From a phage, in sequence record PZ386953.1: a stretch of 64,000 bases of DNA. One strand, written 5' to 3'. Each line of letters begins with the position of its first letter. The first letter of the stretch is position 1. The translations under genes were made by a program, and so were the position numbers. The notes beneath the pieces were generated by a model that was not told the DNA's origin, made no database searches, and worked only from the letters and a program-made list of their open reading frames with translations. Below are positions 4,885-61,433 of this stretch, in pieces.

Positions 4885-6956
4885 TGGCAACAGCTGTTTT
4901 TAAACCTTACCGTGATTACTCTACAATGGCTGCACGGTTTCATTACCGCACAGTTCAGGATACTGCCGTTCCTGGTAGGGATTATGATCATGTTGAGGGC
5001 GATATAACTATCCCAGTTGGGGCAACCAGTATTGAAATCCCAGTGGAAATTGTTGACAAATTACCCAACAGGTTACCAAGAAGCTTCTTTATGGAGTTTT
5101 CATCAAAATCTCAAGGGGTGATGATTGGGACACAAAGGGCGAAATGTACAATAGTTTCAGATGAGAATCTTGACAGAATATCTTGGGATACTGTCGAGGA
5201 GAGAATGTTTCACCCAAGATATTGGGTTACAACCACTCAGCAGACTGAAAGTACCTGTATTGTTGCAGATGACAACTGTTGTATTAACCGTTTAGTGTCA
5301 AGAACATATGGAGGTATGGCTGGGTGCATTTGGGAAACAGTTGACAAGTATGACCATTTCGGTATTGGGTTTGATGATCACTATGAGATGAGAAACACCA
5401 AGCTTTGGTTCAGAATGTCAATAACCAATGCCAGCAACTTCTCCACTCCTGAAAAGATGATTATGACTGTAGACCTTGTTGATGGTACAATCATCTATGT
5501 TCCTTTAGCTCAATATGCTGTCAGCATCTCAGAGGATAAGAATGTTGCAGAGATTCATATTGATTTCGAGGACTGCGTCGGGATGGATCAGAACAACAAC
5601 ATGATGGGTGTTGATCCTCGACAGGTGAGAAGAATTTTAATACCGCTCATGCCTAAAGACTGGGTAAGTAATAGCACAGACCCGAGAACGGAAAATGTAG
5701 AGTGTGAGTTGCGCCTAGATCTGCTTCAGCCAGACACGGGCTGGAAAATGATGCAACTTAACAATATTCAGGTTAAAGAGCACGACGTTGGGATCTGCAC
5801 CGCATATGACGATATGTGGAACGTATCTCCTTTAAGGGTGTTGAACAATATCAAGCGTCTGGGCTATACCGGAACCATAAACCATTATGTTGGTATGAGT
5901 CATTATTATGACTACACATGGTCAGGAACCCAATGGTCTATAAACAGAACAGGAGCGCTAAACGCTGCAGCTTATAAATGGCATGATGATTTTATGTACA
6001 ATGCCAAACGACATAACTTCGACGTTATGCAATCTGTAAGTTTTGAGCTTTTCAGCGATGCCTGCCCGTTGGAATGGACCCAAAGAGACTGGAACGATAA
6101 CTACGCTAAAACAGGGTATACACCTTGTAGCTACCTCCTGTCTCCAACCATTGAAGAGGGTATGAATTTCCTTACTGCAGTATTTAAGAATTTTGCATCA
6201 GCCGCTATGAGAAACAACCTGCCAGTGATTATGCAGGTTGGTGAACCGTGGTGGTGGTACAATACCGATACTCGTAGACCTTGTATTTATGATTACCCTA
6301 CAAAACAGGCGTTTTATGATGAGACAGGCGAGTATGCCTTAGATATTGGGACTATTGACGATCCTAAAACTGGAGGTGTTTACGACAAGTATGTAGCATT
6401 TTGTCGTGGTAAGCTTGGCGCTCGTATTGCGGCTATTTCAAAGGCAATAAAGGCACACGCTGCATCAGCTCAGATGACAGCTCTGCTGTTTTTCCCAACC
6501 ATTATGGAAACCGAGCTTACGCAAAAGCTTAACCTTGCTGACCAATATAAAAAAGAAGCAGGCGCTCTTGATTTCTTCTGCACTGAGTGCTACGATTGGG
6601 TGATGCAGGGAGGTATTGAAAAGGCAAAAGAGTCTGTAAACATACCTATCGTTAAGTTAGGTTGGCAACCGTCTGAAATACAATACCTTGCAGGGTTCGT
6701 TCCTAGTAAAGAGCTTGCTCCGGTATATGGATACGACCCAACTAGGAATTACCAAGAATTTTTATGGAGATGTATTTGCGGAAACATGGCAACTATAGAG
6801 TATAGATACCCTGAGGTAAAACAGTATGTGTGGGCATACCCGCAAGTAATGTCTGACAGCATCACTGTTACCGCTAGAGATTCTACCGTGCTTCATATGG
6901 GGCAGGTTGCTCTGAAAGGGTATGTAGAAGATGTTGTCCCGCCAGACTTCTCATAA
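4884..6956 (+). CDS. hypothetical structural protein
   Basis: 690-aa ORF; TAATG stop-start overlap with upstream gene; AGGAGGG RBS. Confidence 0.4.
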   Translation: MATAVFKPYRDYSTMAARFHYRTVQDTAVPGRDYDHVEGDITIPVGATSIEIPVEIVDKLPNRLPRSFFMEFSSKSQGVMIGTQRAKCTIVSDENLDRISWDTVEERMFHPRYWVTTTQQTESTCIVADDNCCINRLVSRTYGGMAGCIWETVDKYDHFGIGFDDHYEMRNTKLWFRMSITNASNFSTPEKMIMTVDLVDGTIIYVPLAQYAVSISEDKNVAEIHIDFEDCVGMDQNNNMMGVDPRQVRRILIPLMPKDWVSNSTDPRTENVECELRLDLLQPDTGWKMMQLNNIQVKEHDVGICTAYDDMWNVSPLRVLNNIKRLGYTGTINHYVGMSHYYDYTWSGTQWSINRTGALNAAAYKWHDDFMYNAKRHNFDVMQSVSFELFSDACPLEWTQRDWNDNYAKTGYTPCSYLLSPTIEEGMNFLTAVFKNFASAAMRNNLPVIMQVGEPWWWYNTDTRRPCIYDYPTKQAFYDETGEYALDIGTIDDPKTGGVYDKYVAFCRGKLGARIAAISKAIKAHAASAQMTALLFFPTIMETELTQKLNLADQYKKEAGALDFFCTECYDWVMQGGIEKAKESVNIPIVKLGWQPSEIQYLAGFVPSKELAPVYGYDPTRNYQEFLWRCICGNMATIEYRYPEVKQYVWAYPQVMSDSITVTARDSTVLHMGQVALKGYVEDVVPPDFS

Positions 6957-19955: not shown

Positions 19956-20012
19956 CTTAGTCTCTCCTGTTGTATTGTTGGTAGGTGTATGAATACCTTA
20001 TAACTCACCTTT

Positions 20013-20579
20013 TTATTCAAACTGCAATAGTAAGTCCACCACCGCGCTAGGTCTGTCAACAAATTCCCCAGGTCCACATGCCCACAGAGGGTATCCGTCT
20101 ACATACCGCCAAATCCAACCTGCAGTGTGGAGTTCGAGCAGGGCAGTACCGTCCTTACTGTCAACCACTCTTTCCCACAGTGTCGGGCAGCGAAGCTTGA
20201 GGATCGGATCCCCTCCCTTATACCCATCCATGTAGATACCCATTGCAAAGTTCAGCATCATCTTTTTGTGCACTGATCTTTTACTGAGGGTACTCATCAC
20301 TTCCTCTTTGTGAATGTTTGTAAGCTTCTCCTTGGCTACCCGCAGATCGTTGCAACCATTGTTCAGCAGATCTTCCAGACACTTGATCCGAAGGTCGTGA
20401 ATGTCTTTGTCGTGTACCGTTGGCACAGGGTCGTAGCGGTATAGCACTGTTGATACAAGGTTGCTCGGGTGTGGGTCTGACAGCAACCCATAACCCCAAT
20501 ACTCTTCTGTATCTGAAAGGACAAGACACCCAATGTCTCTGTCAAGCTTTCCTGTGTTGTAAGCCACATTGACCGCCAT
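20013..20579 (-). CDS. hypothetical protein
   Basis: 188-aa ORF in co-directional packed block. Confidence 0.4.
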   Translation of the reverse strand: MAVNVAYNTGKLDRDIGCLVLSDTEEYWGYGLLSDPHPSNLVSTVLYRYDPVPTVHDKDIHDLRIKCLEDLLNNGCNDLRVAKEKLTNIHKEEVMSTLSKRSVHKKMMLNFAMGIYMDGYKGGDPILKLRCPTLWERVVDSKDGTALLELHTAGWIWRYVDGYPLWACGPGEFVDRPSAVVDLLLQFE

Positions 20580-52628: not shown

Positions 52629-52710
52629 AAATCATTGACACGCTGCAAAATTTAAGTAAACTAGACACAAAAGGCGGGAATGTTTCCCGCCAGCACAAAG
52701 GAAAAAGATC

Positions 52711-53106
52711 ATGAATAAGAACGTACGCCGCATCATGAACGAACTGGCAAACGATGAAAAAATTATTGATATGCATTTGGTCAACATTTGCCGCCGTTGT
52801 GTAACATATAACAACCGCGCCGCAAAAGCGCGTGAGATGAACGCAAAAGGCACCTTAAAGCCCTTTCAGGTGGTTGTAAAATCTATAACTAGCGCAGCAG
52901 GCCAGGCGCAGGACCACAACAACGAGAGCGCTAATATTGATCCGTCTTACGTAATGAAACGGATCCGGACTTGCAAGAATAAAGAGCAGGTATATAACGT
53001 CATAGATTGGCTGGACTCCCTGGGCGATGTGGTTTACAATAGGTTTTCTGCAGCTATCGAGATCCAGCTTGACAGATTGGACGGGAAAGTACTAAAAACT
53101 TATTGA
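52711..53106 (+). CDS. hypothetical early protein
   Basis: 131 aa; promoter 52635-52662, leader hairpin 52673-52691. Confidence 0.5.
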   Translation: MNKNVRRIMNELANDEKIIDMHLVNICRRCVTYNNRAAKAREMNAKGTLKPFQVVVKSITSAAGQAQDHNNESANIDPSYVMKRIRTCKNKEQVYNVIDWLDSLGDVVYNRFSAAIEIQLDRLDGKVLKTY

Positions 53107-53108
53107 GT

Positions 53109-53154
53109 TTATTTTTAGATGGCCTTGACACCAGGGCCATCAATAAAGTAAACT
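53109..53154 (+). promoter_or_regulatory. 46-bp palindromic promoter box, copy 1
   Basis: TTATTTTTAGATGGCCTTGACACCAGGGCCATCAATAAAGTAAACT; 7-bp inverted repeat GATGGCC/GGCCATC brackets the -35 TTGACA. Confidence 0.55.
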
Positions 53155-53186
53155 AACCACAGTTGAGCGGAAAAGGAGGCTTAAAG

Positions 53187-53306
53187 ATGAGCACTACACG
53201 CCAGCACACAAAGGTAACCATCATCGTTTGCATCATTGGGTACATCCTGGCGCAAATGTTGATGGGTAGCGCCAACGGTGTCGCAAAATTTTTCTTAAAC
53301 TTTTAA
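53187..53306 (+). CDS. small hydrophobic peptide (39 aa)
   Basis: ATG 6 nt after AAGGAGG, downstream of promoter box 53109-53154; one hydrophobic helix. Confidence 0.35.
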   Translation: MSTTRQHTKVTIIVCIIGYILAQMLMGSANGVAKFFLNF

Positions 53307-53334
53307 TTGACAAGCTAACTTAAATCGATATAAT
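53307..53334 (+). promoter_or_regulatory. consensus sigma70-like early promoter
   Basis: TTGACA-16 bp-TATAAT. Confidence 0.55.
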
Positions 53335-53385
53335 AAGCACATAAACGGGAAAACTTCCCAGAACACACAAAAGGAGAAAAACACC

Positions 53386-53727
53386 ATGACTACTATGACC
53401 GCCTCAGAAAAAGCTATGCAGATCGCTGAACTGAAAAAACAGATCGCAGACCTTGAGAATAAGATCGATAACTTTGAAATCGACGAGGACAAGTACGACG
53501 AAAACTATGATGAATGGTTAGACGAGATCTACGGCGAAATTATGATCGGAAACATTTCTTTTCTTCCGTCGCGTATCCTCAAGGAGCTAGATCCTATCGC
53601 TTACCGCTGCGGATTTAGCGACTACATCGACAGCCTGGATATTGAGAACGATGAAGAATACCAGGAATTACAGACAGAGTTAGAAGAAGCAAAAGAAGAG
53701 CTTGCGGAGCTGGAAGAAAACGAGTAA
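53386..53727 (+). CDS. highly acidic coiled-coil early protein
   Basis: 113 aa, D/E-rich, ends EELAELEENE; consensus promoter 53307-53334. Confidence 0.5.
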   Translation: MTTMTASEKAMQIAELKKQIADLENKIDNFEIDEDKYDENYDEWLDEIYGEIMIGNISFLPSRILKELDPIAYRCGFSDYIDSLDIENDEEYQELQTELEEAKEELAELEENE

Positions 53728-53729
53728 GC

Positions 53730-53775
53730 TTATTTTTAGATGGCCTTGACACCAGGGCCATCAATAAAGTAAACT
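53730..53775 (+). promoter_or_regulatory. 46-bp palindromic promoter box, copy 2
   Basis: Identical 46-mer to copy 1, immediately after a stop codon. Confidence 0.55.
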
Positions 53776-53816
53776 TTATACTGTTAACACTGAACGAATG
53801 CATAGGAGTTAAAACC

Positions 53817-54062
53817 ATGGCAGCACTAATCACCAAATATTATGCCCCTACCAATACCAAAAGCGCCCGTATCATGGTAAAAGGCTTCGGACGTAAAAAG
53901 GTGTACACCTGGGATTATGCCTTAGACACGGAAGACAACTACACCAACGCAATGACCGATTTTATTAATGAACTAAATAAGCAGATCTTGACAAGTTATA
54001 AAGTGACCGATATTGCTTATATAGGTGAAGGCGGGATCTGTTTTGTAGGCATTGTGAAATAG
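53817..54062 (+). CDS. hypothetical early protein
   Basis: 81 aa; ATAGGAGTTAAAACCATGGC leader repeated at 58407; promoter box upstream. Confidence 0.45.
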   Translation: MAALITKYYAPTNTKSARIMVKGFGRKKVYTWDYALDTEDNYTNAMTDFINELNKQILTSYKVTDIAYIGEGGICFVGIVK

Positions 54063-54110
54063 TTATTTTTTCGGTGGTCCTGGTTGCAGGGCCATCTATA
54101 AAGATAATTT
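54062..54110 (+). promoter_or_regulatory. diverged promoter box, copy 4
   Basis: TTATTTTTTCGGTGGTCCTGGTTGCAGGGCCATCTATAAAG: same layout, degenerate arms. Confidence 0.3.
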
Positions 54111-54136
54111 ATTAACACCATGAAAGGAGAAAGTAC

Positions 54137-54490
54137 ATGATCAGCGGGGCAAGTTTTATTATTGGCGCTATTGCTACGGCTTTAATTGTAAATAAGATCC
54201 AGGATAAAAAGGAAAGAGGAAGTACCGCCCTTGCAGAATATCCATTTTGGGCATTCAACGATAACGAAGATTATATTATAAAGTATAAAAATAAAGAAGG
54301 TGACCAAGTAACACCGCGACCGATCCCGGCTTACAAAATGCAGGAAACACTATACCGCCTGAAGGCGGGGGGCGCAAAAATTGTAGACTTTTGGGGATAC
54401 GACCACACAGATCAGGAAGTTATAAAGCGCCGTATCCGGGCTATTCAGGCCAATATTGAAGTTAGCAAGGGGGGAATATATGAAAATTAA
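54137..54490 (+). CDS. membrane-anchored early protein
   Basis: 117 aa, N-terminal hydrophobic helix; GAAAGGAGA RBS. Confidence 0.45.
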   Translation: MISGASFIIGAIATALIVNKIQDKKERGSTALAEYPFWAFNDNEDYIIKYKNKEGDQVTPRPIPAYKMQETLYRLKAGGAKIVDFWGYDHTDQEVIKRRIRAIQANIEVSKGGIYEN

Positions 54491-54677
54491 TTTCGAGAAA
54501 ATTGTAAAGCGCCCTCATGATTCCGAAGAGCTGCCAGAACGCCGCCAGCGTAACAATAAACTGAATAAGCCAAAAAGGTTTGGGAAGATCTGGCGTAATC
54601 ATTATGATCGTAAATTGCCCGGCCTACTTTTGGAACGTGAACGACAGGCAGAACGATACCGCCATAAAGACAAATAA
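54480..54677 (+). CDS. small basic protein (65 aa)
   Basis: ATG after AAGGGGGG, overlaps upstream stop; terminator follows. Confidence 0.35.
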   Translation: MKINFEKIVKRPHDSEELPERRQRNNKLNKPKRFGKIWRNHYDRKLPGLLLERERQAERYRHKDK

Positions 54678-54685
54678 CAACCAAC

Positions 54686-54715
54686 TCCCCGCCATTGTGC
54701 GGGGCTTTTTATTTC
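54686..54715 (+). terminator. intrinsic terminator
   Basis: CCCCGC-CATTGT-GCGGGG then CTTTTTATTTC. Confidence 0.65.
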
Positions 54716-54836
54716 TATCCTACGAATAGCGCCCCTGGTTGGCCCTGTAAGCGCCAAAAAGGCCCCCACCTATGCAATCGCCCCCCTTTAACCTGAAAAC
54801 ATCGCCCATGGCCGTTTCATGGCGTTAAAAATATCA

Positions 54837-54864
54837 TTGACATCGTCAACAGGTTAGCTATACT
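54837..54864 (+). promoter_or_regulatory. sigma70-like early promoter
   Basis: TTGACA-16 bp-TATACT. Confidence 0.5.
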
Positions 54865-54896
54865 AACCACATCAAAGAGAGAAAGGAGTAAACGCC

Positions 54897-55157
54897 ATGC
54901 GTAAATTAAAAAATTTTGATAAAGTTGATGTTATCCTGAATAATTTTTACTACTGCAACAACAAGGCTATTTGGTGGCGTGATAGTTCCACCGATAAAGT
55001 TAAGGCGCGCTTTCTTCAAGGGCACTGGCAAGGCCGCCCAGTGATTAAAATCATGGGGCAATTGGTAGCTTTCAAAAATTGCCGCCGTGCTGATGATATC
55101 GAAGATATCTTGAACGTTTTACGCTACAACAATTTTAAAAATAGTGTTGACAAGTAA
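54897..55157 (+). CDS. hypothetical early protein
   Basis: 86 aa; promoter 54837-54864; GAAAGGAG RBS. Confidence 0.45.
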   Translation: MRKLKNFDKVDVILNNFYYCNNKAIWWRDSSTDKVKARFLQGHWQGRPVIKIMGQLVAFKNCRRADDIEDILNVLRYNNFKNSVDK

Positions 55158-55174
55158 GATTAAACAAGTATACT
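55147..55174 (+). promoter_or_regulatory. sigma70-like early promoter
   Basis: TTGACA-16 bp-TATACT, overlaps upstream stop codon. Confidence 0.5.
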
Positions 55175-55231
55175 TAATCACATAGGCGGGAAAAATTCCC
55201 GCCACCGCCGAAGAAAATAGGAGAAAATATC

Positions 55232-55855
55232 ATGACTACCGTTAACATTACCGCAGGTTACAATTTATCTTTCGACGTGCTGACCGACGAACAAAAAGAA
55301 AAAGCCGTTGAAATGGTCCGCGAAAGAGAGGAAAACAGCGGTGATAACTTTTTCGCAGAAAGCGTAATTGAATACTATAAAGAATATGTTTTTCCAGAGT
55401 ATGGCCTTGAAGATACCGAAGTACATTGGTCAGGCTTTTGGTGCCAGGGTGACGGCGCGTCAATCAGTGCTGAAAACGTGGATTTAGAAAAATTTTTGCG
55501 TAAAGTAAAGGCCCTGACCAAGTTCCGATCAATTCGTCACTTGTTCGGCACAATGCACGATGGCGAGTTATCAGCCAGTGTTGAACGCGACAAGTACAGC
55601 CATTACAGCCATGAAAACACTGTAAGCGGGTACATTGATACCACTTGGCTAGATCTGACCGCCAAACAAGAAAACAAAGTGGAAGACCTGGAAGAACTGA
55701 TCACCGAGACGGTACGGGAGCTATCCCGCAAGGTTTACGTAGACCTGGAGGAGGCCTATCTAGAACAGTTCACCGCAGAAAACCTGATCGGCCTTATCGA
55801 GGCCAATAACTGGCGGTTTGATGTCGATGAATATGGTGAGATGACTTTTTCATAA
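55232..55855 (+). CDS. acidic early protein
   Basis: 207 aa, net acidic; promoter 55147-55174 and leader hairpin 55185-55203. Confidence 0.5.
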   Translation: MTTVNITAGYNLSFDVLTDEQKEKAVEMVREREENSGDNFFAESVIEYYKEYVFPEYGLEDTEVHWSGFWCQGDGASISAENVDLEKFLRKVKALTKFRSIRHLFGTMHDGELSASVERDKYSHYSHENTVSGYIDTTWLDLTAKQENKVEDLEELITETVRELSRKVYVDLEEAYLEQFTAENLIGLIEANNWRFDVDEYGEMTFS

Positions 55856-55863
55856 ATAAAGTG

Positions 55864-55891
55864 TTGCAATAACCTAAAAACCTGCTATATT
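55864..55891 (+). promoter_or_regulatory. sigma70-like early promoter
   Basis: TTGCAA-16 bp-TATATT. Confidence 0.45.
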
Positions 55892-55945
55892 AAAACTCAA
55901 GGGGGCAAGACGTTTGCCCCAACACAAAACAAAGAGGATAACATC

Positions 55946-56326
55946 ATGAAAAACACTACCAAGGCTATTGACACCGTTATGTTTAACCTGGTTACATTCC
56001 GTGAAGATATGAAAGATCTTCCTCGTGAAACAGTGTGCGACCATATCGAAAACTATCGCAAACTAATCAAAGAGTTGCCTTTAAAACGTGATCAATATGC
56101 GGCTAACGCCATGCTTAATGCCATGATCAAAAAGATGATCCAGTGTGATTTAACCCTGGCCTATGATTATGCAGGCGGTCGTTTTGCAGTATACAATCAG
56201 CCCGTGCCCGGTATGAGCACCACCGAAGAATTGCACGCGCTCAATCTAAAACAAGACGTGTGGGATAGTATGCCTCGCGTGGTGGTATGGGTAGAAAGCG
56301 GAAAGATTTACGGCGATAATTTTTAA
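55946..56326 (+). CDS. hypothetical early protein
   Basis: 126 aa; promoter 55864-55891, leader hairpin, AAAGAGGATAACATCATG. Confidence 0.45.
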   Translation: MKNTTKAIDTVMFNLVTFREDMKDLPRETVCDHIENYRKLIKELPLKRDQYAANAMLNAMIKKMIQCDLTLAYDYAGGRFAVYNQPVPGMSTTEELHALNLKQDVWDSMPRVVVWVESGKIYGDNF

Positions 56327-56390
56327 TCAGGTAGCAGGCGGCATATTTGCCGCCTTATTGTTAATCAGAACTGTAAAAGAGGTACATAGA

Positions 56391-56762
56391 ATGGAATTTA
56401 TTATTTTGGCTGTATTGGTTGCCTTGTTTAACGCCTGGATCGCTGGCAAGATGGGAAGATCCGCCTTTTTATGGTTTATTATATCTATTTTCCTGGGGGT
56501 GGTTGCAACTATTGTATTGGTTATCCTTGCAATTGTTGACAAGGGGAATAATAGAAAGGGTAAAGTATTTTCAGACCTGTACGACGCTCAAACGTTTGTC
56601 AACGCCTATTATAGTGATCTTCCAGTCTCCCTACGCTGCAGCCTGGCACAACAGGTTTTTGATGAGGCTAAAACCAGAGATCAAGCCCATGAGATATGTT
56701 TAACTGAGGCGGATCGCCTATTTGAGAGGAATAGAAAATATGTGGGCCAACCGTTTAAATAA
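56391..56762 (+). CDS. membrane protein
   Basis: ATG after AAAGAGG; two predicted TM helices. Confidence 0.45.
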   Translation: MEFIILAVLVALFNAWIAGKMGRSAFLWFIISIFLGVVATIVLVILAIVDKGNNRKGKVFSDLYDAQTFVNAYYSDLPVSLRCSLAQQVFDEAKTRDQAHEICLTEADRLFERNRKYVGQPFK

Positions 56763-56985
56763 TGCCACGTTAATTAATCCCTTTAGTGAAGATTTGAAGC
56801 CAGCCGCCTGGCGTGACGGATTCAATAACGAACGCTTTATTTTCAGGCCTGATCTTGAGGAATTTTATAACAATGGATCGAACAACAGCGGAGATAATTT
56901 TTCTTGTGGTGTGCGTGGTGATGGTACTCCTGGGGGCCATTGTAAACCACGTCACTACTACCAGAAGGAAAGGGGGAGACGATGA
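56740..56985 (+). CDS. hypothetical protein (frame uncertain)
   Basis: ATG after GAGAGGA; TGA overlaps next start (ATGA); an alternative 41-aa TM peptide ORF exists in another frame (56873..56998). Confidence 0.3.
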   Translation: MWANRLNNATLINPFSEDLKPAAWRDGFNNERFIFRPDLEEFYNNGSNNSGDNFSCGVRGDGTPGGHCKPRHYYQKERGRR

Positions 56986-57101
56986 CAACCAAGGATAAGC
57001 CATGTACCGATAAGGTGCGCCGCGTTATGGTATGGCTTGAGATTATCGCCCTTGAAATATTGCTAGGCGTAGGGATGTACTTTATCGCTGTAAGTAACTA
57101 A
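56982..57101 (+). CDS. small membrane peptide (39 aa)
   Basis: ATG 6 nt after AAGGGGGAG; one TM helix; terminator follows. Confidence 0.35.
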   Translation: MTTKDKPCTDKVRRVMVWLEIIALEILLGVGMYFIAVSN

Positions 57102-57104
57102 GAA

Positions 57105-57134
57105 CGGCCCCCGATCATGGGGGCCTATCTTTTA
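57105..57134 (+). terminator. intrinsic terminator
   Basis: GGCCCCC-GATCAT-GGGGGCC then TATCTTTT. Confidence 0.6.
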
Positions 57135-57240
57135 AAAAAATTTTTCTTCCGTGGTGTTGCAATCCGATCCGGAATGTGGATAATAACAATCAACGGGGAG
57201 CTAATCCCCACCACCACAAAAACCAGAAAGGAGAAACAAA

Positions 57241-57441
57241 ATGAGCAACAATATCCGCGTTATTAACTTCAAAAAAGAAGAAAAAATTGCCGTGCTGATT
57301 GACGGTCAAGAAATCTTCAAGGGCGACTATGAAGATCATCAAACGGCGATTAGTATCACTCGCGTGATTGGTTACCATAATTTCTACCCCCAAGGCGCTG
57401 AGGCAGCAGTTAAACGAATCAAAGAGATTGTAGGCCTGTAA
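57241..57441 (+). CDS. hypothetical early protein
   Basis: 66 aa; promoter 57157-57186; GAAAGGAGA RBS. Confidence 0.45.
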   Translation: MSNNIRVINFKKEEKIAVLIDGQEIFKGDYEDHQTAISITRVIGYHNFYPQGAEAAVKRIKEIVGL

Positions 57442-57444
57442 AAT

Positions 57445-57490
57445 TTATTTTTAGATGGCCTTGACTTCAGGGCCATCAATAAAGTAAATT
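57445..57490 (+). promoter_or_regulatory. 46-bp palindromic promoter box, copy 3
   Basis: Same box with 3 substitutions (TTGACT, TAAATT). Confidence 0.5.
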
Positions 57491-57532
57491 TAAACCCTGT
57501 TAAAATAATCAGTGCAAAAAGGAGTAATGGTC

Positions 57533-57832
57533 ATGTTTATACCCGCCAATAATCTTTATTTCTTTGATGGTCAGATCGTAGACGGTGTGGAAGTGGAGAT
57601 CACTGGGTGCCCTGGTGGTCAGGCTATGACTTTTCGGAATAATGCCTTTGATGATTCTCGTATCGTTATGAGAATGGAAGTTACAAAGCTGGACGACAAG
57701 AAAACACTCATTGACTATTCCGTGAAAGATCATCCAGACCACCACATGATCTATGGTGATTTGTGCATTGTTGACCGTGACAAGGTGAGCGGCATTGTGA
57801 TCGCTATTGTGAACGATGTTTTCTCAAACTAA
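57533..57832 (+). CDS. hypothetical early protein
   Basis: ATG 8 nt after AAGGAG (tool GTG start is 21 nt upstream); promoter box 57445-57490. Confidence 0.45.
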   Translation: MFIPANNLYFFDGQIVDGVEVEITGCPGGQAMTFRNNAFDDSRIVMRMEVTKLDDKKTLIDYSVKDHPDHHMIYGDLCIVDRDKVSGIVIAIVNDVFSN

Positions 57833-58747: not shown

Positions 58748-58981
58748 ATGATGGAACAAATTAAACGCGCCGAGGCTATTAATGGCAACGTGATCTATTT
58801 TGTCAGCAAAAACGAAAAAGGCGTACCCTATGCGGCGGTAATAGTACAGCCTGACGGCGATTATTGGTGCACTGTGTACGGCGCTTATTCTTTTGGGCGT
58901 CCGGTGCATGATAAAATTTTGAAAGTAGCGAACCCTACCGGGAAAAATATTACAGCAGAAAAATTTTTTGAAAATAGTTGA
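58748..58981 (+). CDS. hypothetical early protein
   Basis: 77-aa ORF after hairpin 58699-58715. Confidence 0.4.
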   Translation: MMEQIKRAEAINGNVIYFVSKNEKGVPYAAVIVQPDGDYWCTVYGAYSFGRPVHDKILKVANPTGKNITAEKFFENS

Positions 58982-59005
58982 CATGACTATATAAAACTGT
59001 AGTAT
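58978..59005 (+). promoter_or_regulatory. sigma70-like early promoter
   Basis: TTGACA-16 bp-TAGTAT. Confidence 0.45.
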
Positions 59006-59057
59006 ATAAATCAAAGGGGGCAACAAGCCCCACCAACCACAAAGAGGATAAAAAATC

Positions 59058-59328: not shown

Positions 59329-59574
59329 ATGAAAAGCAATAAAGGTTATAACGGTTACAAAAACAAAACTCATTGGAATGTAAGCCTTTGGATTAATAAC
59401 GATGAGTCATTGTACCGGTTGGCCCAAGGATTTATTAACGCTAATGCTAATCGTAATGATGCGGCGCGGGATATGATGCTTTTTCTGGAGCTAACCGGAC
59501 AAGATAAGACCCCGGACGGCTTCAAGTACAGCACTACGGCGATCCGTGCCGCGATGGTTGGAATGAAACACTAA
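59329..59574 (+). CDS. hypothetical early protein
   Basis: 81 aa; AAGAAGAGG RBS. Confidence 0.45.
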   Translation: MKSNKGYNGYKNKTHWNVSLWINNDESLYRLAQGFINANANRNDAARDMMLFLELTGQDKTPDGFKYSTTAIRAAMVGMKH

Positions 59575-59651
59575 AAGCACATAGCCGCCTTACCCTGGGG
59601 CTGTAGTAGCGGCCCCATGAATAAGGTTACTAACAGAAGAGAATAAACACT

Positions 59652-59756
59652 ATGAAACAGAAATTAATCGATGCAGTGATCTTGGTTATTGCCCTGGGTA
59701 TTGGCCTGATTGCAACCATGTCTAATATGATCTTGTCTTCCAACGGTATCGGGTGA
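59652..59756 (+). CDS. small membrane peptide (34 aa)
   Basis: Single hydrophobic helix; weak RBS; below tool cutoff. Confidence 0.25.
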   Translation: MKQKLIDAVILVIALGIGLIATMSNMILSSNGIG

Positions 59757-59765
59757 GGTTGGCAA

Positions 59766-59981
59766 ATGATCACTAACAAAACAGGCAAAACAGAATTTTT
59801 ACGCAACTTACAGATCGGCAAGCCTGAGATCTGGTACTGCACTAAAACACCGCGTGACGAAATGAAAGACTTCACCGCCACGCTGCAACGGGTAAAGATA
59901 TCTATCACGCAGAAAAAGGCCTTACTAGTGGTGGAAGGGGAGATCCCCCAAACCGTTGTTATAGTTGAGCGTACAGCATAG
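59766..59981 (+). CDS. hypothetical protein
   Basis: 71-aa ORF. Confidence 0.4.
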   Translation: MITNKTGKTEFLRNLQIGKPEIWYCTKTPRDEMKDFTATLQRVKISITQKKALLVVEGEIPQTVVIVERTA

Positions 59982-60072
59982 TTTAATTTATACCGATACC
60001 CGAAAATTAACCAACAAAGCATAAACAGGCGGTTACCGCCGCCTTAAACGTAGCAGAAAGAGGATAGACACA

Positions 60073-60990: not shown

Positions 60991-61098
60991 TGTCATATAA
61001 GAACTATAAAAACCGTTGACATCTGCCAGGTGGTGGGGTAACATTTATCTTGAAGGGGCAAAAGTGCCCACACAACAACCAGAAGAGAGGAAAACATT

Positions 61099-61371
61099 AT
61101 GTCAAGCTGGATTAATCAAGAAGTCGAATCACGTTTTAATGCTATTTGGGATCTCATCGAAAAAGAGGACGGAACATCAAGCCCTTATCTCAATAATCTT
61201 GAATTCCATTTCGTGGAAGCGATGAACGCAGAACATGATCACGAAGGTGGTGCGGATGAGTTCGCTAAAGGGTATGGCTTCAACAATGCCAACGAAATGA
61301 TCGAGGCGGTTGTACTCCAGGCTGAGGAAGATTATCAATTAAAAACGCTTGAATTCTGCCGCCGTAAGTAA
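61099..61371 (+). CDS. acidic early protein
   Basis: 90 aa, D/E-rich; promoter 61005-61034 and leader hairpin. Confidence 0.45.
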   Translation: MSSWINQEVESRFNAIWDLIEKEDGTSSPYLNNLEFHFVEAMNAEHDHEGGADEFAKGYGFNNANEMIEAVVLQAEEDYQLKTLEFCRRK

Positions 61372-61433
61372 TAAGATAATGACACGGGCCAAAAGGCCCA
61401 CTAAACAAAAACCACATAAAGAGGAAAAACATC

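Follow-up and report, generated by a model that had tools for sequence, protein, structure and literature searches.

Four small early genes of an rV5-like phage are each followed, at or directly after the stop codon, by a palindromic box of 46 bp that in three of the four cases resembles a promoter when read as DNA and in all four folds into a hairpin when read as RNA, and the question raised by this locus is on which of these two levels the box is maintained. The box is found in a 64,000-nucleotide stretch of phage DNA (sequence record PZ386953.1; this whole stretch is referred to below as the window), which belongs to a Vequintavirus, that is, an rV5-like phage of E. coli. Over positions 52900-57700, the window shows 94-98% identity to upwards of 110 complete rV5-like Escherichia phage genomes (genus Vequintavirus), with EdH4 and 'C12' as the nearest relatives (~97.7%). 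All copies of the box lie in the early-gene region, among small same-strand genes that have no assigned function and are ORFans according to genome annotations, PHROGs and Pfam; the genes are set apart by σ70 promoters of the consensus type and by a small number of canonical terminators.

The 46-mer occurs exactly at 53109-53154 (copy 1) and at 53730-53775 (copy 2) and with three mismatches at 57445-57490 (copy 3); in shuffled sequences, the expected number of such matches is 0. A degenerate version (copy 4, 54061-54112) was recovered with an nhmmer profile built from the copies (E 1.5e-14). All four copies are on the plus strand, within 4.4 kb, and each starts within the stop codon of the preceding open reading frame (ORF) or immediately past it; the ORFs concerned are those at 52711-53106 (copy 1), 53386-53727 (copy 2), 53817-54062 (copy 4) and 57241-57441 (copy 3). 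Exact matching and the nhmmer search thus reproduced the coordinates and mismatch counts given in the initial annotation of the window, and the location immediately past stop codons, which it had also pointed out, holds for each of the copies. Neither the nhmmer profile nor a covariance model identified any further copies in the window, and the covariance model found none in the remaining 72 kb of EdH4, the nearest complete genome.

Folded as plus-strand RNA, each copy yields an identical two-tier hairpin of 49 nt that starts in the upstream stop codon, so that the base of the hairpin overlaps the stop codon in all four cases; the next start codon is located 27-42 nt downstream. The lower, A/U stem consists of 10 bp (AGUUUAUUUU / AAAGUAAACU) and is separated by a 2x3 internal loop from the upper, G/C stem of 10 pairs (GAUGGCCUUG/CAGGGCCAUC, with one U.G pair), which is capped by a 4-nt loop. 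For the four copies, the predicted folding energies lie between -22 and -25 kcal/mol, and the z-scores relative to shuffled sequences between -5 and -6; when variants from other genomes are included, all copies adopt one bipartite hairpin of -20.6 to -30.1 kcal/mol, with z-scores of -5.1 to -7.0 and a single exception, a variant at -2.8. The promoter-like hexamers are embedded in this structure. The initial annotation placed the -35 hexamer in the loop of a 7-bp inverted repeat; a perfect 7-bp repeat indeed flanks this hexamer in copies 1-3, but the stem actually extends to 10 pairs around a 4-nt loop and, therefore, the '-35' straddles the stem and the loop, with TTG paired and only ACA in the loop. 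In the lower stem, the upstream T-run pairs with the '-10' element TAAACT, which makes up the 3' arm; because the T-run and the A-rich '-10' segment form this second 10-bp stem, the whole box is a single 49-nt hairpin.

Copy 1 (53106-53154, plus strand) starts at the final base of the TGA stop codon and comprises a lower stem at 53106-53115/53145-53154, an upper stem at 53118-53127/53132-53141 and the loop ACAC (free energy -25.1 kcal/mol, z -6.1). Its σ70-like hexamers (53125-53154, plus strand), recognized at the sequence level, are TTGACA (53125-53130) and TAAACT (53149-53154), with an 18-nt spacer. Copy 2 (53727-53775, plus strand) starts at the final base of a TAA stop codon and shares the 46-nt core of copy 1, with the hexamers at 53746-53751 and 53770-53775 (-22.3 kcal/mol, z -5.1). 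Copy 3 (57441-57491, plus strand), which also starts at the final base of a TAA stop codon, has the loop ACUU, an 11-bp lower stem and the hexamers TTGACT (57461-57466) and TAAATT (57485-57490) (-23.6 kcal/mol, z -5.6). The hairpin of copy 4 (54061-54109, plus strand) overlaps a TAG stop codon, and its -35 position reads CTGGTT; it folds at -24.0 kcal/mol (z -5.1) on the plus strand and at -10.3 kcal/mol (z -1.0) on the minus strand.

Comparative evidence comes from a set of 54 copies from 17 genomes, with 27 distinct sequences among the aligned copies. Standard base pairs occupy 98.7% of the 540 pair cells, compared with 35-57% when the partners are slid by 1-3 columns, and RNAalifold, run independently, yields the identical structure. 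Four pairs, all in the lower stem, are changed on both sides. Neither the observed covariation score nor the percentage of paired cells was matched in any of 500 shuffles; the count of double-change pairs was matched in 100 of the 500 and hence is weak as a single measure. The orthologs of copy 4 show a change from U-A to C-G at one pair and a series from A-U through G.U to G-C at another, and these two series are the most telling; neither could have been copied from the other paralogs. Relative to copies 1-3, copy 4 itself carries three changes in the 5' arm of the upper stem (A-U to G.U, C-G to U.G and U.G to C-G), with pairing kept through wobble, and swapped A-U pairs likewise preserve its two-tier hairpin, whereas its loop and the -35 position are entirely different. 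Because the conserved pairs include G.U, the structure is confined to the mRNA strand: 98.7% of the cells are paired on the plus strand versus 86.9% on the minus strand, the mean free energies are -23.9 and -14.9 kcal/mol, respectively, and the plus strand is the more stable one in all 27 copies. Furthermore, among nine collinear genomes, nucleotide diversity is as low in the hairpin stems (0.023) as in codon positions 1 and 2 (0.027), and increases in the hairpin loops (0.080), downstream leaders (0.093) and third codon positions (0.122). Natural one-base insertions in the loop or the internal loop extend the hexamer spacing to 19 or 20 nt and leave the hairpin intact. Given the pairing and covariation, the fold that is confined to the plus strand, and the preservation of the hairpin in copy 4, which lacks a -35 element, the object under selection is the RNA hairpin, which purifying selection and compensatory changes have preserved in each of the four copies, and not a DNA operator. 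The hairpin that the initial annotation had anticipated for read-through RNA is thereby supported by the covariation, the strand-specific G.U pairs and the low diversity of the stems.

What, then, of the promoter? Copies 1-3 contain TTGACA/T-18-TAAACT/TAAATT, with 10, 10 and 9 of the 12 positions matching TTGACA-N18-TATAAT. Within these copies, TTGAC is invariant, and the sixth -35 position and the following loop base vary. Copy 1 with its leader can be aligned to the neighboring predicted early promoter at 52635-52662 (plus strand; TTGACAC-N16-AAGTAAACT; P194 of rV5) across the -35, the -10 and the leader (TTGACAC...AAGTAAACTA...CACA...GCGG), and CTAACCACA, following the -10, is common to copy 1 and a consensus promoter at 54837. 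It is plausible, therefore, that the box in copies 1-3 also functions as a σ70 promoter. The hexamers are, on the other hand, confounded with the stems, and copy 4 has no -35.

Taken together, these features suggest, with moderate confidence, that the box is an intercistronic cassette of the promoter-early stem-loop (PeSL) type, a composite of an RNA hairpin, an internal σ70-type promoter and a substrate for recombination. Under this interpretation, when transcription from early promoters further upstream reads through the box, the hairpin would form behind the terminating ribosome and part the cistrons at the RNA level, most likely as a processing or 3'-end stability element; the helix of about 22 bp with an asymmetric internal loop has the geometry of T7-type RNase III sites. 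Alternatively, the hairpin could be an attenuator that lacks a U-tract, as reported for PeSL stem-loops. In copies 1-3, the σ70-type promoter (TTGACW-18-TAAAYT) contained in the same DNA would restart transcription for the downstream gene, copy 4 would be a hairpin-only member, and a DNA-binding regulator would be unnecessary.

PeSL cassettes are known from the T4-like phages RB49/phi1, T4/PST and KVP40/nt-1 (Arbiol et al. 2010, PMC2839356; Comeau et al. 2014, PMC4122927). As in the box, a stop codon in an AT-rich stretch, σ70-like -35 and -10 elements, a stem-loop, a Shine-Dalgarno sequence and a start codon follow one another within ~80 nt; in one described PeSL subclass, the stem-loop overlaps the -35, as does the upper stem of the box. 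PeSLs occupy intergenic positions in ORFan-rich (hyperplastic) early regions, which parallels the four copies between small genes; exchange between neighboring copies deletes the intervening ORFs and leaves a chimeric copy; and degenerate members that lack a hexamer occur in both systems. The differences are partly of taxonomic scope rather than mechanism, given that the box belongs to a Vequintavirus whereas PeSLs have so far been described in T4-like myoviruses. In addition, the box comprises four copies of one near-identical sequence, in contrast to ~50 heterogeneous PeSL motifs, and its spacer is 18 nt, not 17. In the box, the whole promoter lies inside a long, two-part hairpin in which the -10 serves as one arm of a stem, whereas the PeSLs inspected directly at a Krischvirus locus contain a short GC stem that is located between the hexamers or next to them; the stem-loops of these PeSLs, like the box, have no U-tract. 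Promoter and attenuator activities as well as mini-circles have been described for PeSLs; those of the box are putative. The covariance model found no members of the box family in the Krischvirus locus. Krischvirus, the RB49-like group in which PeSLs were defined, shares early genes with the rV5-like phages: the macro-domain (Tk.4) protein of the latter, rV5 ORF209 (locus 620-1078), is 68% identical to that of Krischvirus MIZ6 (locus 20001-20456), and the rV5 record notes several further RB49-like early ORFs. Hence the rV5-like phages and the Krischviruses exchange early-region genes.

The recombinational component of this interpretation is documented by a deletion. Copies 1 and 2 flank an optional 621-bp cassette (53155-53775, plus strand) that consists of an ORF for a 39-aa membrane peptide (53187-53306), a 113-aa ORF (53386-53727) and one box, with a perfect-consensus promoter (53307-53334) between the two ORFs. 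In magaca, ECP26, phiWec189 and one IMG/VR contig, a single box follows the ORF that lies upstream of copy 1. The exact 621-bp deletion, with a chimeric box that has the left flank of copy 1 and the right flank of copy 2, was identified in magaca, ime, ECP26, ECP32 and phiWec189, and in the IMG/VR contig; no fewer than five phage genomes, which represent different lineages, are thus affected. A junction query detected the deletion arrangement in 6 of 121 records, including A147; the junction in this 'Campylobacter phage' was rejected as a probable assembly artifact, being located at a contig end opposite an intact copy. On both flanks, each deleted genome is most closely related to undeleted genomes rather than to the other deleted ones; therefore, the deletion recurred or was spread by recombination. 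As the junctions show, copies 1 and 2 serve as direct repeats for homologous recombination that removes the two-gene cassette. The loop alleles ACAC, ACUC and ACUU are found at all three paralogous sites, in varied combinations across genomes, a pattern that is consistent with gene conversion. A separate loss was observed in rV5_ev146, which is missing the upstream ORF and copy 1 and diverges wholly from the window downstream of ~54625. This loss was considered as a box-to-box event and rejected; it is a 501-bp deletion between CGCCAGCACA microhomologies (window positions 52688-52697 and 53199-53208; positions 4973-4982 of the rV5_ev146 locus).

Several observations weigh against the composite cassette or its individual components. 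With respect to the promoter, the 18-nt spacer exceeds the 16-17 nt of the other predicted early promoters of this phage, only 4 of 6 positions of the -10 match, the sequence upstream of the box is a T-run where the other promoters have an A-tract, and the natural spacing variants of 19 and 20 nt suggest that the constraint on a promoter is weak; a literature search for a Vequintavirus transcript map or transcriptome paper found none. With respect to the hairpin, the apparent covariation at columns 10/58 could partly reflect gene conversion between copies rather than independent compensation. With respect to processing, G-C at the presumed position 2 of the proximal box is a known antideterminant, and copy 4 has no UA/UG pair of the distal-box kind. 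Finally, in a sliding-window test, mosaic breakpoints between genomes were not enriched at the boxes; apart from the 621-bp deletion, there is thus no evidence of wider shuffling.

Among the alternatives, the one that survives best, although we regard it as distinctly less probable than the composite cassette, is that the box is purely an RNA element, namely, an RNase III-type processing site or a barrier to 3'-exonucleases in a polycistronic early mRNA, with a protective hairpin that stays on the upstream message as in T7 R0.3-R1.3 or in repetitive extragenic palindromic (REP) elements; the -35/-10 resemblance would then be an inactive relic of an ancestral promoter. RNase III sites are found preferentially in intergenic regions within transcripts. 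The E. coli RNase III substrates are typically ~22 bp long, that is, two helical turns, and internal loops in such substrates limit cleavage to one bond, leaving a protective 3' hairpin (PMC1540722, PMC6212723). The size of the box conforms to this pattern, with 10 + 10 bp and the 2x3 internal loop. Copies 1-3, unlike copy 4, contain pairs similar to those of the canonical distal box (U-A/U.G); in the presumed register, the G-C pair at position 1 of the proximal box is acceptable, and the antideterminant at position 2 speaks against such a site. Because the base-pair determinants fit only in part, we treat the RNase III site as hypothetical. Like the R1.1-type sites of the T7 early mRNA, the box is intercistronic and resides on the mRNA strand, consists of approximately two helical turns split by an asymmetric internal loop, and, if cleaved, would provide the upstream message with a hairpin at its 3' end. 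Unlike in T7, where the sites have no promoters, cleavage of the box is only predicted, there is no sequence similarity and no Rfam match, and the match to the proximal and distal boxes is mixed. With the REP and other intercistronic stabilizing hairpins of enterobacterial operons, the box shares a repeated, transcribed, imperfect palindrome after a stop codon within an operon; it differs in that it is not dispersed, is not associated with a RAYT-type transposase and has no counterpart in E. coli genomes. The equal conservation of copy 4, which has no -35, the tolerance of the 19- and 20-nt spacing variants, and the presence of strong consensus promoters upstream of every box already also favor a purely RNA-level role. 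What argues against it is the invariance of TTGAC combined with the variability of the sixth position and the next loop base, which is the information content of a -35 hexamer, and the context of copy 1 from -10 to +1, which is common to bona fide-looking promoters. Downstream of copy 4, the 65-aa ORF at 54480-54677 matches bacteriophage T7 protein 1.1 (Pfam PF08200, E 2.6e-11), and T7 gene 1.1 has the R1.1 RNase III site upstream of it; this parallel is a noteworthy coincidence to which we attach no evidential weight.

That the box is an intrinsic (rho-independent) terminator, the function implied by the Murica record (KT001917), where 45-bp 'terminator' features coincide exactly with copies 3 and 4, seems improbable. 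A stable hairpin just past a stop codon is what such an element would look like, and PeSL stem-loops without obvious U-tracts have been found to reduce the expression of a downstream reporter. The box, however, has no U-tract: its upper stem is followed by AAUAAAGUAAA, the full hairpin by mixed sequence, and the 3' flank is A-rich, such that the T-run upstream and the A-run downstream are the reverse of a terminator on both strands. A terminator scan called none of the four copies, yet called the true terminators at 54687, 56336 and 57106. Moreover, the genes downstream of the boxes are in the same operon and have no consensus promoter except for the box; the operon that holds copies 1, 2 and 4 is ended by the canonical intrinsic terminator at 54687-54704 (plus strand), a GC stem followed by a T-run. 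Elsewhere in the window, the convergent ORFs at 59329-59574 (plus strand) and 59630-60022 (minus strand) are separated by a long hairpin (59579-59634) that is stable on either strand, at -24.9 and -23.9 kcal/mol, and is likely a bidirectional terminator.

The possibility put forward in the initial annotation, that the box defines an operator-controlled class of promoters in which a dimeric phage or host protein bound to GATGGCC-N10-GGCCATC occludes the -35, is very unlikely. The perfect repeat around the -35 in copies 1-3 and the confinement of the box to one stretch of early genes, which might be co-regulated, are compatible with this idea, but copy 4 retains the element when there is no -35 to occlude, and its half-sites are asymmetric, GGTGGTC and GGCCATC, the left one differing at 2 of 7 positions. 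The three upper-stem changes of copy 4 are wobble-compatible on the plus strand only, and one of them, U.G to C-G, affects pair eight of the stem, which lies immediately beyond the 7-nt half-site; the conserved U.G pair extends the stem past the DNA palindrome. Conservation, furthermore, reaches into the second stem, with the T-run and the '-10', where the C-G/U-A and A-U/G.U/G-C compensatory series are located, and the minus strand folds ~9 kcal/mol less favorably in each of the 27 copies. The asymmetric half-sites of copy 4, its lack of a -35 and the strand-specific folding thus do not bear out a dimeric regulator. Just as unlikely is a selfish or neutral small palindromic repeat, similar to REP elements or miniature inverted-repeat transposable elements, that spread locally without serving any function in the phage: although it is a short palindromic unit after stop codons that causes deletions and whose copies share loop alleles, its copies number only four, all oriented alike within 4.4 kb, the host E. 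coli has none, the element is present in essentially all 121 Vequintavirus records and confined to this genus, its stems are as constrained as codon positions 1 and 2, and compensatory changes are observed among orthologous copies.

The phyletic distribution of the box is narrow. In a blastn search against phages, it was detected in 121 records, all of which are Vequintavirus; there was no blastn match among 5,426 complete E. coli genomes. Pattern scans of IMG/VR and metagenomes yielded a few extra rV5-like contigs and otherwise chance matches, an Rfam search of the 50-64 kb region (E <= 1) produced no match, and no box-like elements were found at loci with homologs of the flanking ORFs in other phage groups. 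A repeat_region annotated in phage isim was examined as a candidate and proved unrelated to the box, being located inside a coding sequence. Seventeen GenBank records of the MG0656xx series (for example, C12, A147 and A141) are titled 'Campylobacter phage', with C. jejuni as the host, and are 94-98% identical to rV5-like phages of E. coli over the box region; several of them bear the tag UNVERIFIED. Probably, either the host was mislabeled or the preparations were contaminated. The 81-aa ORF at 53817-54062, between copies 2 and 4, has homologs with 35-46% identity in unrelated phages, namely Seuratvirus/Nonagvirus siphophages, Pseudomonas myophages and Klebsiella podophages, and is a small gene that moves horizontally.

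The window contains a second class of repeated cassettes, which consists of eight consensus-type early promoters, each followed by a GC-rich hairpin such as GGCGGGAAUGUUUCCCGCC (52635-52691, 53307-53359, 55147-55203, 55864-55920, 57157-57209, 58978-59031, 61016-61075 and 61349-61399). These hairpins begin 10-12 nt past the -10, roughly at transcript positions +3 to +5, and are followed by a CA-rich leader and a Shine-Dalgarno sequence; on the minus strand, they resemble a terminator followed by a T-run. They would be located at the extreme 5' end of each early mRNA and possibly guard it against 5'-end-dependent decay.

With respect to the box itself, the findings entail a correction of annotation. 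None of the 33 promoters and 20 terminators reported in the rV5 genome paper corresponds to the box; the element is unannotated in rV5 and labeled 'terminator' in Murica. The comparative data on the box are the clearest evidence obtained so far for RNA-level selection on the stem-loop of such cassettes.

We further consider the tentative possibility that the 49-nt sequence is doubly coded, serving as an early promoter in DNA and, in read-through RNA, as a dedicated processing site for an RNase III-type enzyme or a phage factor. If this is the case, each small early gene would be autonomous at the levels of both transcription and mRNA, the box would represent a defined RNA family that is backed by covariation and restricted to the rV5-like phages, and a mechanistic reason would be available for the existence of PeSL-type stem-loops without U-tracts. 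If the box is indeed PeSL-like, the PeSL-type regulatory and recombination cassettes would extend beyond the T4-like phages to the Vequintavirinae. The phages of this subfamily are widely used in the biocontrol of E. coli O157, and the direct repeats constitute a predictable deletion hotspot, with the 621-bp two-gene cassette gone in ~4% of the sequenced isolates, which bears on the genome stability and engineering of therapeutic phages.

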